IMG/VR virus record: IMGVR_UViG_3300045738_002140
Coordinates: 50,177-114,176 of that record
Source of the DNA: a virus
Reading direction: 5' to 3' (one strand)
DNA length: 64,000 bases
Shown here: piece by piece, positions 9,797-18,600 of the stretch
Position numbering within the stretch: position 1 is the first letter of the stretch
Layout: each line of letters opens with the position of its first letter
Notes under the pieces: generated by a model
What the model was told of the DNA's origin: nothing
Database searches by the model: none
The model's input: the letters and a program-made list of their open reading frames with translations, nothing else
Position numbers and translations under genes: made by a program

Positions 9797-11017
9797 TTAT
9801 GATTTATCATCGCGCGGCTTCTTATCCTTTTCGGCTGGGACCTGAGAAGGGGCGGCCGCGGCCAGCGAGGTGACCGACAAGCCGACCTCGCGCAGGGATT
9901 TCCGCTCAGAACCATGGCTGCCTGCGCGGGTTCCTCCCCACCAGAATCTTGCTGGAAGGTAGTTTTCCATTTCTTCTACTACAATGCGGGAATAGTCTCG
10001 GGCAAACTGATCAAATGGCATTCCTTCTATGTCGAAGACCCCTTCAATCAGTGACTGAACTAACCCAATCAGAACCTTTTCTTCTTTCCCGTTCCAGAAA
10101 TGACGATGACCAAAGGATGCCCTTATTGAACCCCTTACGGTCCCCATCATCTTGTCGTAATCGCTTTTTTCAGTTATCTTCATATTGCTCCAGTTTGCTA
10201 TGTATTCCTCTTTGGTCATGCGATCGTAGTGATGGATGGCCGTTACGTCTATTAGCTGATTTGGGAGCCAAATATGGTTTGATACCGCTTTAGCAGCTCT
10301 GTAGAAATCGACATCGTGGAGTTTTTTGTCTAGTTTTTTGGCGCAAACATATGTCCAGTAAAGGGTATTCTCTGTTGCTCCATCACTGAGGGCTTTTTTG
10401 ATGAGGTCAAGCCCATACTCTTCGAGTAGATCTTTTACTACCTGAGTGTTGAATTGACAGTGTGCAGCAATCAATGAGCTCGGTGGCGCCGTTAAGTTCA
10501 GGTGCTCAGATGCTGCCCGCCACCAATGATGCGTGGATCCGGCAGCGCCCGGCGGCTTTCCGACTGCGGTTTTGATTCGTCCATTAATAAAAAAATCTTT
10601 TACTTCACATTTGTTTGCGATATATTGGTCACAGTCTATTATTTGCACAAATTCTGTATCGATGTGCTCATGGAGTAATAGTTTTAGGCCTTTTTGGCGC
10701 TGCCAGTGTTTACCTTTGTGAAAAGTGTGTGCCCATTTTTGACTGTCCTTCACAGGCTCGAAGAGGTGTCCGCGCTTTTGCTGCTTCCCATCGCTGCCTT
10801 GTCCATGATGAAGGAATCCGAGGTCAACATCACGGTCTTTTAATATTTTATACTCATGGGAAGTGGGAAGAGATTCAATATCGTTTGGGGTTACTACTAA
10901 TATTTTGATGTCTTTCTTGTCGACCAATCTCTCTATTGTGGGGATTACGCATTTCATTAGTCTAATTTCGTCTGTGGGGCCAGACATGACTGTAACTAGC
11001 GTTAGTCTTTTATTCAT
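9797..11017 (-). CDS. GT-A-like protein (DUF6492-like)
   Basis: WQRQKGLKLL...IIDCD, TENTLY. Confidence 0.55.
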   Translation of the reverse strand: MNKRLTLVTVMSGPTDEIRLMKCVIPTIERLVDKKDIKILVVTPNDIESLPTSHEYKILKDRDVDLGFLHHGQGSDGKQQKRGHLFEPVKDSQKWAHTFHKGKHWQRQKGLKLLLHEHIDTEFVQIIDCDQYIANKCEVKDFFINGRIKTAVGKPPGAAGSTHHWWRAASEHLNLTAPPSSLIAAHCQFNTQVVKDLLEEYGLDLIKKALSDGATENTLYWTYVCAKKLDKKLHDVDFYRAAKAVSNHIWLPNQLIDVTAIHHYDRMTKEEYIANWSNMKITEKSDYDKMMGTVRGSIRASFGHRHFWNGKEEKVLIGLVQSLIEGVFDIEGMPFDQFARDYSRIVVEEMENYLPARFWWGGTRAGSHGSERKSLREVGLSVTSLAAAAPSQVPAEKDKKPRDDKS

Positions 11018-11035: not shown

Positions 11036-12046
11036 TTAGAAGTCATCTTCTAGGCTCCCTGAACTTTGATAGTCTTTTACTTTTCTTTCGAAAAAGTTGG
11101 TCATGGCCGTGGTGTCAACAACCTCGGACAACCAAGGGAATGGATTCTGGTCACTGTCAAATCGGAAATCAATACCTATGCCTTCAAGTCTCCTGTTACC
11201 GATATACTTCATGTAGTCCACAAACATATCCGCGTTTAAGCCTAGGATTCCTCTCGGCAGAACGTCATGGGCGTATTGAATTTCGAGGTCTACGGCTTTT
11301 TTAATGTGTTCGACCGTTTCTTCTTCGAACTTCTTTGTCCACACCGATGGGTATTGTTTTTTTATTGTGTTAATTAGGTATGTCCCGAACTGTATGTGGA
11401 GGGTCTCGTCCCTTAGGGTATATCTAATCTGGTCTGAAAGTCCCGGTAATTTGTTTTGTCTACCCAGAGCGAGTAGCATGGCAAATCCACTAAAGAAAAA
11501 TGTGCCCTCGCAAACAATGTAATAGGTTATGAGGTTGCGAAGAAACTCCCTTTTGCCTTCTGTTGTTTTTGTGGAAAAATCTTGCCTGTTGACATCTGTC
11601 GTGATCTCTATCAAAAAGTCGTCCTTGGCTTTAATGCTTGGAATATTAAGGTACGCCTCGTAAACCTCCGAGACCTTTAGCCCGTAGCTGTCGCAACAGG
11701 TTACTATCGTCCAGTTATGAAGGGATTCTTCGTATGCTTGCCTGAGTATATATTGACTGCACTCCGCGTCAGTTATCCACCTGTTGACTGTAAGTAATAG
11801 GTTGTTTCCTACTAGGGACTCCGTGCTGGCAAAGAAGCCCAAGCAGCGCCTGACTAGGAGTTTTTCGTCTTTTGTTAGGGCGTCTGATTTCCATTGGTCA
11901 ACATCGTCGCTCATGTTAATCTCGGACGGAGCCCAACTGTTGGCTACGCCCTTTAGGAATAAGTCCCATGCAAATTTATGTTTGTGCGGAAGTATTTGGT
12001 TTACCCCTCCGATTTCTTCCCCTAGTAGTAGCCCTGTTTTGTTCAT
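11036..12046 (-). CDS. nrdB: ribonucleotide reductase beta subunit, class Ic (R2c)-type signature
   Basis: LGFFASTESLV, EESLHNWTI, EGTFFFSGF, YTLRDETLH, NFFERKVKDYQ; TAATG overlap with nrdA sets start 12046. Confidence 0.95.
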   Translation of the reverse strand: MNKTGLLLGEEIGGVNQILPHKHKFAWDLFLKGVANSWAPSEINMSDDVDQWKSDALTKDEKLLVRRCLGFFASTESLVGNNLLLTVNRWITDAECSQYILRQAYEESLHNWTIVTCCDSYGLKVSEVYEAYLNIPSIKAKDDFLIEITTDVNRQDFSTKTTEGKREFLRNLITYYIVCEGTFFFSGFAMLLALGRQNKLPGLSDQIRYTLRDETLHIQFGTYLINTIKKQYPSVWTKKFEEETVEHIKKAVDLEIQYAHDVLPRGILGLNADMFVDYMKYIGNRRLEGIGIDFRFDSDQNPFPWLSEVVDTTAMTNFFERKVKDYQSSGSLEDDF

Positions 12047-14490
12047 TATTGACAACTCTCGCATGAAGGATCTTGTATATTGCAGGCCGCTGGTTCTCCG
12101 TCCTGTGTCGCTTGGGTGAATGATTTTTCGATTTTGCTTGCGGCTTCTGTTCTTAAGTAGTATGTGCTCTTAAGTCCCCTGTTTCTGGCGTGAATATAAA
12201 GGTCGTTCAAGAGTTTAAGAGATGTCTTATTGTTAAACAGGTTTAAGCTTTGGCCCATATCTATCCATTTTTGTCTCGCTGCGGCACCGTCTATCAAAAT
12301 AAATTGATCCTGATCAAACGCTACCCTGTATTGTCTCTTAAGTCCCTCGGGTAGCTCTCCGTTTAGGTCTGCAACATTTCCGTCTACGGCCTTGATCATT
12401 TCTATAAGATTTTTTGACCAAATATTTAGTTTCTTACATTCTTTCACGAACCACTCGTTTGTTATCGTCAGGTTTCCCGATTTGTTTTCGTAGACGAAAA
12501 GGACAGAAAAATCAGGCTCAACAGAAGGAGAGCAACCTTGAATGTAAGATATAGTAGCAGTAGGAGCGACAGCCATAGTGTTACTGTTACGCATACCGTA
12601 AATCCCAATATCATCCCGTAAACTTTTCCAATCCACCTCAGAAACATATTCTTTGCCCTTATGGATGATAGGCTGTTGGTCCAAATAATCCATAAGTTTT
12701 TTATATGTATCTATGGGAAGAGAGCCCTTGCTCCACTTGGAGCCTTCGTAGGTTTGGTATTTTCCTCTTTCCTTTGCTAGTCTGTTTGAATTTAAGATAC
12801 AATGATATGAAATAAATTCATAAAGTTCATCTGAGAATCTAACCGCCTCCTTCGACGAGAAGTCTATTCCATATGAGTGGAAAACGTCTGCCCATCCCAT
12901 CGTGCCTGCTCCGACGGGTCTGTGTTTGTTGTTGGCTTTTTCTGCTTCTTTTGTGGGGTAGAAGTTCAGGTCTATAACGTTATCTAGCATGCGCATTTGG
13001 GTAGCTATGCTTTTAGCTAAAAGCCTGAGGTCTAGCTTTCCGCTCTCTTTAAGGTGGCTCTTGAGGTTTATGGAGCTCAGGTTGCACACCGCTGTCTCTC
13101 CTATTTCGGTCTTTTCCCCGTGCTTATATTTAGAGGCCTTGGTGTGTAAAAAAATTTCTGTACAAAGATTTGAGCTATTTATTATTCCTTCGTGTGAGTT
13201 TGAGTACCTTATATTGGCGTTGTCCTTGAACGTCATCCACGGGTGCCCTGTTTCGTAAAGGGATCTTAACATCTTCTTCCACAAAGATTTAGCTTTTATT
13301 ATCTTATGGTTTTTAATTTCCCCCTCTTCCGCTAGTCTGCAATAATCTTTATATTTTTCATCAAACTTATCGCCGTAGGTGCCGTGAAGATCCTTTACGT
13401 CATTTGGGCTAAAGAGGTACCAGTCTTCGTTTCTTTCTACTTTTTGCAAAAAAAGATTTGGAATCCAATTGGCCGTATTGATATCGTGACAGCGACGACG
13501 CTCTTCTCCAGTGTTCTTCTTTAAGTCTAAGAATTCCTCTATATCTAGGTGCCAAGTTTCAAGGTACGCACATCCTGCGCCGGGGCGTTTGCCGCCTTGG
13601 TTAACCGCGACTAGGAGATCGTTAAATATCTTAAGCCACGGAACAAGACCGCTTGAGGTCCCGTTTGTCCCCTTTATGTAGGACCCTGACGCTCTAAAAT
13701 TAGAGACATCCAATCCTAATCCGCCCGCGAACTTGGATTTCCTAGCTTCTTGCCACGCCCCTTCGAAAATTCCATCTATTGAGTCGTCGAAAGTATTAAG
13801 GTAACAAGAAGAAAGCTGAGAGCGAGCGCCACCGCTATTAAAAAGTGTTGGGGTCGACGGGCAAAGCCTAAATGTAGAGATAGCCTCATAAAATTCAATT
13901 GCTTTCTTTTCTTTGTTTTTTTCATTTAGCGCTAGCCCCATCGCTACCCTCATCCAAAAGGATTGGGGAGACTCTAGTCGCCTGCCGCCCATGCTGTGCA
14001 GGTAGCGATCATATAATATTTGTAAACCAAGGTATTTAAATTTAAAATCTCTTTCGGGGCAAAGGATTTCTGATAATTTTTTTAAGTCAAAATCAAGAAG
14101 CCTTTCGCTTAGAATTCCTTCTTTCACTAGAAGCTTTATGTTTCTTATGAATGATAGTCTGTATTGATGGTCAAAGGCGTCTTTGTCTACGCTGATTCCG
14201 AATACTTCTTTGTGAATATTCCCTAGGAGTAGCCTCGCTGCAACGTAGCTGTAGTTCGGTTCCTGTTCTATCTTCGTCCTTGCGGACATGATAAGGGCCC
14301 TATCTATCTCCTTGGTGGGGATCTTGTCGTAGAGCTGAACGTTCGCGTCGATTACAACTTCGCTAGCAGAAACCCCCTCTAGCCCTTCGCAGGCTCTCTG
14401 CGCGCAGATATTGGCTTTGTTTATGTCGAGGGGCTGCAGTCTGTTGTTTCTTTTCTTTACGTTAAGTATGTTCTTTTTGTGGGGGTCCAT
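12046..14490 (-). CDS. nrdA: ribonucleotide reductase alpha subunit with ATP cone
   Basis: VKKRN ATP-cone, STPTLFN, SSCYL, NQGGKRPG, SSNLCTEI, APTATIS, KSTYYLR, C-terminal CESCQ. Confidence 0.98.
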   Translation of the reverse strand: MDPHKKNILNVKKRNNRLQPLDINKANICAQRACEGLEGVSASEVVIDANVQLYDKIPTKEIDRALIMSARTKIEQEPNYSYVAARLLLGNIHKEVFGISVDKDAFDHQYRLSFIRNIKLLVKEGILSERLLDFDLKKLSEILCPERDFKFKYLGLQILYDRYLHSMGGRRLESPQSFWMRVAMGLALNEKNKEKKAIEFYEAISTFRLCPSTPTLFNSGGARSQLSSCYLNTFDDSIDGIFEGAWQEARKSKFAGGLGLDVSNFRASGSYIKGTNGTSSGLVPWLKIFNDLLVAVNQGGKRPGAGCAYLETWHLDIEEFLDLKKNTGEERRRCHDINTANWIPNLFLQKVERNEDWYLFSPNDVKDLHGTYGDKFDEKYKDYCRLAEEGEIKNHKIIKAKSLWKKMLRSLYETGHPWMTFKDNANIRYSNSHEGIINSSNLCTEIFLHTKASKYKHGEKTEIGETAVCNLSSINLKSHLKESGKLDLRLLAKSIATQMRMLDNVIDLNFYPTKEAEKANNKHRPVGAGTMGWADVFHSYGIDFSSKEAVRFSDELYEFISYHCILNSNRLAKERGKYQTYEGSKWSKGSLPIDTYKKLMDYLDQQPIIHKGKEYVSEVDWKSLRDDIGIYGMRNSNTMAVAPTATISYIQGCSPSVEPDFSVLFVYENKSGNLTITNEWFVKECKKLNIWSKNLIEMIKAVDGNVADLNGELPEGLKRQYRVAFDQDQFILIDGAAARQKWIDMGQSLNLFNNKTSLKLLNDLYIHARNRGLKSTYYLRTEAASKIEKSFTQATQDGEPAACNIQDPSCESCQ

Positions 14491-16478: not shown

Positions 16479-17078
16479 TTATATTTTGTCTGGCCATTGG
16501 TGTTTGCCCTTCATCTTTTTGTTGAGTACTTTAATTCCCCTTTCGTGGAGGTTTATGGCTGTCTGTGTGCTGGCCTTTATTGTCTTAGCTATCTTTGCCC
16601 ACGGAGCCTTCTTCCCGTTTTTGTCGAAGTACCTTAGTTCAAAAACCTGTTTTATTCTTTTATCTTTTAGTTGATTAAGTATATTAAATACAAACTCTAG
16701 GTCGTCTTTGTAGTTTTTCTGTGGTTGTGGGCCGTGGTTGTTCACTAGGTAATCTAGGTCCTTCTCGTCCACGGCGAGATACCTGTTGTTGTTTATTACA
16801 TTCAGGCAGTGGTACTTTATTTGGTTCCCGAGCCAAGTCGAAAACTTTACGTTCCTTGTCGGGTCAAAGCTCTTTGCGGCTTTATAGACATAGAAGTCTT
16901 TTTCTTTGGATACCTCATGTACGCAATGCCCTGACGCCATTATCGCTGGAGAGTATTTTTTATAAATAGTAAAACACAGCGGGCTGTGTCTGCTTATTAA
17001 TTCGCACAGGCTTTTCTCGCAGTTTTCTGCCTTAACGTTTTCTGCTAGGGCTTTGTCTTGAATTAGGTTTTCATCCAT
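16479..17078 (-). CDS. phage RNA polymerase sigma factor (sigma70 family)
   Basis: Region 2 KAAKSFDPTRNVKFSTWLGNQI; region 4 HTH PWAKIAKTIKASTQTAINLHERG. Confidence 0.88.
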   Translation of the reverse strand: MDENLIQDKALAENVKAENCEKSLCELISRHSPLCFTIYKKYSPAIMASGHCVHEVSKEKDFYVYKAAKSFDPTRNVKFSTWLGNQIKYHCLNVINNNRYLAVDEKDLDYLVNNHGPQPQKNYKDDLEFVFNILNQLKDKRIKQVFELRYFDKNGKKAPWAKIAKTIKASTQTAINLHERGIKVLNKKMKGKHQWPDKI

Positions 17079-18152: not shown

Positions 18153-18181
18153 AAGATATCATAAAGTAACCGAAAAGTCAA
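18153..18181 (-). promoter_or_regulatory. sigma70 promoter, leaderless
   Basis: TTGACT-17-TATCTT, ATG 6 nt downstream. Confidence 0.7.
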
Positions 18182-18600
18182 TCGTTAACTTTGACTATGC
18201 TTTTTAGGTTGATTTGAAGGTCTTTGCAGATTTCTAAGGATGAATAGTCATTTTGGTAAATCTCCCCGAAAACTACATTGGGAATTCCGTATGCGGCGAT
18301 GGTTCTTAGGCACTCATTACACGGCAGGTGTGTGCACGCAAGCACACGGCCTTCCCCGGGTTTTATGTATCTTAGTGCGTTTACTTCTGCATGGACCACT
18401 CTCTTTCTTCTCGCATCCCTGTCTTTCCAGTCGATCTCTATGTTGGGGGGAGCCCCGTTGTAACCCAGTGAGGCTACAGAATTGTCTCCTCGGAGAACGC
18501 ACGCCCCAACCTTAAGGTAGGGGTCTTCGCTTCTTTTCGAAGCCACTTTTGCTAGTTCAAGTGCATAGCTTTCCCAGCTTATTCTTTTTGTTTTATCCAT
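18178..18600 (-). CDS. dCMP deaminase
   Basis: KVGAC, GYNG, HAEVNAL, PCNEC. Confidence 0.95.
   Translation of the reverse strand: MDKTKRISWESYALELAKVASKRSEDPYLKVGACVLRGDNSVASLGYNGAPPNIEIDWKDRDARRKRVVHAEVNALRYIKPGEGRVLACTHLPCNECLRTIAAYGIPNVVFGEIYQNDYSSLEICKDLQINLKSIVKVND

Follow-up and report, generated by a model that had tools for sequence, protein, structure and literature searches.

The locus described here raises the question of whether a marine phage that carries isoleucine in place of the radical tyrosine in its ribonucleotide reductase (RNR) encodes an enzyme of class Ic, with a manganese/iron cofactor. The type of RNR constrains the trace metals that are needed for phage replication, and it therefore serves as a marker in the ecology of marine viruses. 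The original prediction, made from the letters of the DNA, had recognised a class Ic signature in the gene and had regarded its particular residues as atypical. Both statements are examined below.

The nrdAB genes and their phage record

The DNA analysed (the window) is a stretch of 64,000 nucleotides from an IMG/VR virus fragment of about 114 kb, the completeness of which was estimated by using CheckV at 66%. The gene nrdB lies on the minus strand (11036..12046) and encodes the β subunit of a class I RNR of NrdBz type with a class Ic signature (336 aa). Translation of the minus-strand frame from 12046 to 11036 gave 336 codons without interruption. Over its full length the product was matched above the curated cut-offs as a class I RNR β subunit, both by Pfam PF00268 (1.4e-74; 251.5 bits, cut-off 33.6; profile positions 2–281 of 281) and by the NrdBz-type profile NF005550 of NCBIfam (PRK07209; 438.6 bits, cut-off 309). 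The phage RNR gene that had been predicted at 11036–12046 was borne out by these two profiles and by the origin of the DNA from an IMG/VR virus record, in which nrdB is the sole PF00268 gene. A further in-frame ATG is present 5′ of nrdB (12047..12064, minus strand; MRELSI-) and would give a protein of 342 aa, but it is probably not used as the start; relatives of nrdB mostly encode 336–337 aa, and a minority 342 aa.

The partner gene nrdA (12046..14490, minus strand) encodes a class I RNR α subunit of 814 aa with one N-terminal ATP-cone. The Pfam domains ATP-cone, Ribonuc_red_lgN and Ribonuc_red_lgC (3e-174) were found in NrdA, and its best solved relative is 5IM3 (1.1e-234). The motifs SSCYL (227), NLCTE (441), VCNLSS (468), TYYLR (776) and the C-terminal CESCQ (810) are present, so that NrdA is intact, with the all-α domain and the barrel, the motifs of the catalytic Cys, Glu and Asn, a Tyr pair and a CxxC at its C-terminus. 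The two genes overlap by one base, the final A of the nrdA stop codon TAA being the A of the nrdB ATG (junction TGTCAATAATGAAC). The pairing of nrdB with a class I α gene is conserved: of 88 related loci, 86 have nrdA 5′ of nrdB, and in the remaining two the upstream flank is shorter than 300 bp. Among related phages (L013–L092), the median identity of NrdA to that of the window is 74%, and NrdB is 85–90% identical.

In the part of the record that lies beyond the window there are genes for a J-like central tail fibre, for a DNA polymerase and a DnaB-like helicase, and for an exonuclease; the tail fibre, the polymerase and the helicase confirm its phage origin. The stretch is present in seawater and marine metagenome sequencing runs, and there was no RNA run among the listed sequencing runs that contain it. 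DNA similarity to isolated phages was confined to short stretches of nrdA, about 70% identical, in phages of Pseudomonas and Acinetobacter, and the best NrdB proteins of phage isolates are 42–45% identical; no cultured relative or host can therefore be named. No thioredoxin or glutaredoxin gene was found within the 114 kb record (66% complete), so the reductant is presumably that of the host.

Several further genes were observed around the locus. Some kilobases upstream of nrdA, and in the same orientation, lie a dCMP deaminase gene (window 18178–18600, minus strand) and a gene at window positions 16479–17078 (minus strand) for a sigma-70 region-2-like protein, the match of which is weak and just under the Pfam cut-off. 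The next gene downstream of nrdB (window 9797–11017, minus strand) encodes 406 aa; DUF6492 was its sole match (2e-08), and there was no PHROG match. Upstream of the window, the record contains an ORF of 3,611 aa (G000:C1:1343-12178, L010), and an ORF of 275 aa is situated between this and the gene of the J-like central tail fibre (1,519 aa).

Metal site, radical site and fold of NrdB

In a phmmer search of the PDB, entries of R2c from Chlamydia trachomatis (Ct) were ranked first (about 1e-109 for 1SYY, 4D8F and 2ANI, the last being the F127Y mutant), followed by R2 of Saccharopolyspora erythraea (6Y2N; 1.4e-99); the next R2 was matched only at about 6e-38. The alignment with 1SYY (E 1.8e-109, 369 bits) places residues 14–332 of NrdB on residues 27–344 of the chain, with an offset to Ct numbering of 13 that is constant and gap-free through the metal-site helices. 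E76, E107, H110 and I114 therefore fall exactly on Ct E89, E120, H123 and F127. The original prediction had named E76 in FFASTESL, E107-x-x-H110, W112 and I114 and had described their spacing as identical to that in Ct R2c; every one of these positions was found again when the gene was read codon by codon, and the spacing agrees with the phmmer alignment. At the radical site, where an aligned tyrosine would have spoken against the class Ic reading, the alignment sets I114 on Ct F127.

The first metal ligand, E76 (GAG, 11819..11821, minus strand), is Glu as opposed to the Asp of subclasses Ia and Ib; Glu was found at this position in all 120 close relatives that match the motif (best 120 of 5,612). 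The segment E106-E107-S-L-H110 (11717..11731, minus strand; motif YEESLH) supplies the second-sphere Glu, the bridging Glu ligand (E107, GAA, 11726–11728) and the His ligand of site 1 (H110, CAT, 11717–11719), and corresponds to Ct E119/E120/H123. In alignment A1, E107 is invariant and H110 is conserved in at least 90%. Two and four residues beyond this His follow W112 (TGG, 11711..11713, minus strand), which corresponds to Ct H125 and is characteristic of the clade but variable across the family, and I114 (ATA, 11705..11707, minus strand), at the position of the class Ia radical Tyr.

The ligands of site 2, E180, E214 and H217, are found together with F184, Y209 and the second-sphere D213 at 11396..11509 (minus strand). 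With the offset of 13, E180, F184, Y209, E214 and H217 correspond to Ct E193, F197, Y222, E227 and H230; E180, F184, D213, E214 and H217 are all invariant in alignment A1. The ligands E180, E214 and H217 and the second-sphere residues E106 and D213 had been omitted from the original prediction, although all five are present. W38 (11933..11935, minus strand), also invariant in A1, is the counterpart of Ct W51 and E. coli W48, the electron relay to the cofactor. The C-terminal tail (11036..11071, minus strand) contains Y326 (DYQ, in KDYQ), the radical-transfer Tyr, conserved in at least 90% of alignment A1, and ends in the acidic sequence LEDDF, the α-binding tail. The claim that the equivalents of Ct Y222 and of the C-terminal Tyr are kept holds for Y209 (in RYTLRDE) and Y326.

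An AlphaFold2 model of NrdB, calculated from an alignment of 56 sequences, had a mean pLDDT of 89.4. The C-terminal tail was modelled with low pLDDT, as is expected for a segment that gains order only on the α subunit. When placed on the Mn(II)/Fe(II)-loaded Ct NrdB (4M1I), the model gave an rmsd of 0.9 Å over 297 columns with 51% identity. NrdB thus resembles Ct R2c (1SYY, 4D8F, 4M1I) in fold, in the spacing of the E/E/H/E/E/H ligands and in the second-sphere Glu and Asp; the relay Trp and the equivalents of Y222 and of the C-terminal Tyr are kept, and neither protein has a Tyr at the radical site. The phage protein differs in having Ile114 (Val in most members of its clade) instead of F127 and W112 instead of H125; its partner NrdA carries one ATP-cone. 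With R2 of S. erythraea (6Y2N; PMC7467353), NrdB shares 45% identity in a structural alignment and the Glu at ligand 1, whereas the radical site is Phe there and Ile or Val here, and the two proteins were placed in different parts of the NrdBz tree.

These residues correspond to the description of subclass Ic. According to Table 4 of PMC6370689, NrdBzc proteins have E/E/H/E/E/H as ligands and E and D in the second sphere, which is the set formed here by E76, E107, H110, E180, E214 and H217 with E106 and D213. The same paper assigns an NrdBz protein to subclass Ic if Phe, Leu or Val occupies the radical site. Ile is not in that list; substitutions by Leu, Ile and Val in R2c were, however, documented by Hogbom in 2010, as reported in a passage of PMC3824934, and on that basis the replacement of Tyr by Ile, likewise a non-oxidisable residue, is also within the subclass. 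The class Ic signature that the original prediction had recognised was upheld; it comprises the six ligands, the second-sphere Glu and Asp, the absence of Tyr, the relay Trp and the C-terminal Tyr.

Other members of the superfamily were compared and set aside. Subclasses Ia and Ib do not fit E76 and I114, and their profiles scored far under the cut-offs (NF006576 for Ia, 71.7 versus 346; TIGR04171 for Ib, 73.6 versus 355). Subclass Id (NrdBi) differs at two positions, with Ile instead of Tyr at 114 and Glu instead of Cys/Ser at 106 (PMC6370689, Table 4); its chains 6CWO, 6CWP and 6CWQ matched only at about 1e-14, over residues 126–327.

The lack of the radical Tyr and the all-Glu ligand set are also features of the ligand-binding oxidases that resemble R2 (R2lox), and a β-like protein might act outside ribonucleotide reduction, either as such an oxidase or as an inactive or regulatory R2 (β′). 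Weak matches to R2lox profiles of NCBIfam, at about 50–60 bits (cut-offs 194–315), could be cited in favour of the former. However, the R2lox profiles as a group gave 40–60 bits against cut-offs of 194–346, while NF005550 was passed; all six ligands are intact; and Y326 and the acidic α-binding tail are present, which R2lox lacks (PMC3824934). The one-base overlap with nrdA, the conservation of this pairing in related phages and the position of nrdB as sole PF00268 gene of the record also argue against a role other than in RNR, which we regard as very improbable.

Relatives, variation at position 114 and phylogeny

When a protein collection was searched with NrdB, 5,612 relatives reached E ≤ 1e-30. 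The best 120 of these share 82–90% identity with it; they originate from marine sets (Tara among them), and their contigs measure up to 176 kb. In IMG/VR, 439 contigs carry a close nrdB relative (85–90% identical). Because the residue pattern recurs in 120 of the 120 closest proteins and in 81 of 88 related loci, as found by motif scanning, it is not due to chance. Close relatives were also observed on three contigs of metagenome-assembled genomes (MAGs) labelled Pseudomonadales (L002, 86%), Woesebacteria (L003, 72%) and Cellvibrionales (L004, 71%; 211 kb); these are either phage contigs that were mis-binned into MAGs or a hint of a gammaproteobacterial host.

Among the best 120 proteins, the site motif is HNWTV in 105 and HNWTI in 15; Leu was seen in one internally truncated protein (P0117). 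The codons at site 114 in the 81 loci that showed the motif were GTT (20), GTA (17), GTC (15), GTG (12), ATA (11), ATC (4) and ATT (2), so that each of the four codons for Val and of the three for Ile occurs, and no further amino acid is encoded. On a tree of 121 rows that was built without column 114, at least 12 residue changes at this site were counted (Val/Ile, one Leu). From the use of every Val and Ile codon and from these repeated changes it follows that the site is held to a β-branched aliphatic residue, Val and Ile being interchangeable. Ile114 of the window is the minority state of an ordinary Val/Ile polymorphism. The residue two positions after the His ligand (H+2) differs with distance: most close relatives read HNWT, those at about 72% identity HNLT, and alphaproteobacterial homologues HNHT.

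For the wider family, 1.84 billion cluster representatives were searched exhaustively with HMMER; 240 clusters were found at E ≤ 1e-30, and the key columns were read in the best 150 of these (representatives of clusters at 50% identity). In these 150 clusters the radical site is Phe, Val, Ile, Leu or Ala where ligand 1 is Glu, and Tyr where it is Asp; a few Glu/Tyr clusters are the exceptions. Ile at the radical site is also found in other clusters, for example P0123, P0148 and P0177. Pairs of nrdA and nrdB with Glu and Ile were located on chromosomes of Alphaproteobacteria MAGs (L005:3412-7002, 1.65 Mb; L009, 1.32 Mb); the NrdB encoded there is 60% identical to that of the phage and reads EECLHNHTIV, and the genes are flanked by yaaA-like (peroxide stress) and dsbD-like genes. 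As small-genome Alphaproteobacteria carry Ile in a chromosomal nrdAB, the variant is not specific to phages. Besides Trp, the H+2 column contains H, L, D, M, A, E, Q or R across the family, and Trp also occurs there in Asp/Tyr clusters (P0163, P0204, P0219, P0230, P0242 and P0251), which argues against a role tied to tyrosine-less chemistry.

The view that the combination of Ile at the radical position with Trp at H+2 is an atypical variant could therefore not be sustained. Val is the norm of the clade and Ile its frequent alternative, Ile occurs in Alphaproteobacteria and in other clusters, and Trp at H+2 occurs in Asp/Tyr proteins. Moreover, Ile and Val in R2c had been documented before (Hogbom 2010, as cited in a passage of PMC3824934), and a viral clade with Ile or Val had been described as "subclass Ic-like" (PMC12918982).

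Many of the related cluster representatives (P0122, P0125, P0126, P0129, P0130, P0132, P0133, P0135 and P0139) are about 615–685 aa long and match NrdB in two stretches. This length and the divided match indicate that about 300 aa are inserted where the metal site lies, probably as an intein; the NrdB of the window is without it.

Maximum-likelihood trees were calculated from representatives of clusters with complete ligands (78 rows, quick PMSF). NrdB was placed in a clade of 14 cluster representatives (99% SH-aLRT), all of which have Glu together with Val, Ile or Ala, and this clade is nested in a group of 35 rows (96%) that includes most of the Glu/Phe and Glu/Leu clusters. The Val/Ile clade is abundant in marine phages and occurs as well in small-genome marine Alphaproteobacteria. 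P0128, which represents the solved R2c type and is near-identical to 6Y2N (688 bits to 6Y2N, 459 bits to Ct), was found among the Asp/Tyr proteins, apart from the 35-row group; for this reason function might not transfer directly from the solved R2c to the phage protein. NrdB itself is about as similar to the Asp/Tyr protein P0127 (337 bits) as to P0128 of the R2c type (323 bits). R2c is described as polyphyletic by Lundin 2010, as quoted in a passage of PMC3824934. In an AU test (70 rows, LG+G4), from which eight long-branch rows were left out (P0263, P0148, P0214, P0257, P0271, P0244, P0242 and P0248), a single clade of all Glu/non-Tyr rows was not rejected (p = 0.18).

The Val/Ile clade might be a separate subclass of class I in which Glu and the loss of Tyr were gained independently of the Chlamydia lineage, perhaps with a cofactor or site of the oxidant other than Mn(IV)/Fe(III). 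We consider this doubtful and put its probability low.

Cofactor, proposed mechanism and the Ic-like viral clade

We consider it probable that nrdA and nrdB encode a working RNR of class Ic type, with a Mn/Fe cofactor that stores the oxidant as Mn(IV)/Fe(III). The intactness of the genes, the residues, the fold, their conservation, the synteny, the phage origin and the abundance in marine samples are shown by the data above, whereas homology is the sole ground for the choice of metals, for an oxidant centred on them and for enzymatic activity. In the proposed mechanism, the overlapping genes would provide a complete, oxygen-dependent class I enzyme. NrdB is predicted to assemble with O2 a heterobinuclear cofactor, with Mn in site 1 beside I114 and Fe in site 2, so that the oxidising equivalent would be held on the metal as Mn(IV)/Fe(III) and not on a tyrosyl radical. 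The hole would travel by way of W38 and Y326 into NrdA, to its YY pair and its catalytic Cys. At position 114, which is the radical Tyr in class Ia and Phe in Chlamydia, the aliphatic side chain of Val or Ile would merely fill space and be inert. Regulation would be exerted through the ATP-cone of NrdA, and reduction would depend on thioredoxin or glutaredoxin of the host. Such an enzyme would most likely supply deoxynucleotides during infection, in keeping with a nucleotide-metabolism neighbourhood that includes the dCMP deaminase gene. Resistance to stress and sparing of iron, as proposed in the original prediction, may plausibly be benefits of a tyrosine-less phage RNR.

Ligand sets are unreliable predictors of the metal in this superfamily (PMC4118035), and this counts against the Mn/Fe reading. 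The Val/Ile clade may instead be functionally distinct, with Mn2(IV/III) as in class Id, with diiron Fe(IV)/Fe(III), or with a radical located elsewhere, for example on W112; to this possibility we assign a small but appreciable probability. It would agree with the separation of the 14-representative clade (99% SH-aLRT) from the solved R2c type and with the decision in PMC12918982 to keep such sequences apart as "Ic-like" on account of their own α clade and a differing β residue. Class Id, moreover, likewise has Glu as first ligand (PMC6370689, Table 4), but it keeps the Tyr and has Cys/Ser, not Glu, in the second sphere (PMC6370689), and its chains matched NrdB only partially, as given above. 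The conservation of W112 within the clade could point to a function of this residue, yet position 112 is variable (H, L, D, M, A, W) and Trp is found there in Asp/Tyr proteins too; judged by helix geometry, a side chain at a distance of two residues from a ligand would be expected to face away from the metals. The AU test, in which one Glu/non-Tyr clade was not rejected, also speaks against a distinct subclass.

The Mn/Fe reading may be set beside two groups of marine viral enzymes. In a bioRxiv preprint of February 2026 (PMC12918982), a viral clade of 269 α sequences was described from GOV 2.0; it amounts to 1.44% of viral RNRs, is nearest to NrdAz and was named "subclass Ic-like". The adjacent β subunits are without the Tyr and have Ile or Val in its place. 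The clade was kept apart from Ic because the α sequences form a clade of their own and the β residue differs from the references. Its abundance peaks near 60 degrees S and at the deep chlorophyll maximum. It is anti-correlated with predicted iron, although the authors conclude that no single-metal pattern explains it, so that the ecological support for iron sparing is weak; it is without a biochemically characterised member, and they allow for mixed metals, another metal or none. The window agrees with this description in its marine viral origin, in an α subunit nearest NrdAz (here 5IM3), in the β gene adjoining that of α and in Ile/Val at the radical site. We infer from the match of descriptions that the window and its approximately 440 IMG/VR relatives belong to the same clade. 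That study is confined to ecology; the ligand set, the fold, the toggling between Val and Ile, the cellular Ile relatives and the phage type are added here.

The second group is Cyano SP of cyanopodo- and cyanosiphoviruses, for which a "subclass If" was proposed (PMC6370689). It likewise comprises marine phage β subunits that lack the radical Tyr and whose first ligand is Glu, but its second-sphere residue is Asp, whereas phage NrdB has Glu, the NrdBzc pattern. Cyano SP also forms a branch apart from NrdBzc, and according to PMC6370689 its α subunit is unregulated, in contrast to NrdA with its ATP-cone. Similar ecological arguments, including the avoidance of inactivation by nitric oxide, were made for Cyano SP in PMC6370689.

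As both the substitution and the viral clade had already been reported, little is added here by way of discovery. The window, part of a fragment of about 114 kb with an estimated completeness of 66%, shows the Ic-like viral clade in a long and clean genomic context, and three points emerge from it: the full class Ic set of ligands and relay residues is kept, Val and Ile can stand in for each other at the former radical site, and there are closely related cellular proteins that carry Ile. This NrdB is of value chiefly as a clean candidate with which the Val/Ile clade could be tested biochemically for the first time. At stake is whether a sizeable fraction of the viral class I RNRs of the ocean would run on one manganese and one iron instead of two irons, and whether class Ic chemistry may reach beyond the Phe-bearing enzymes.
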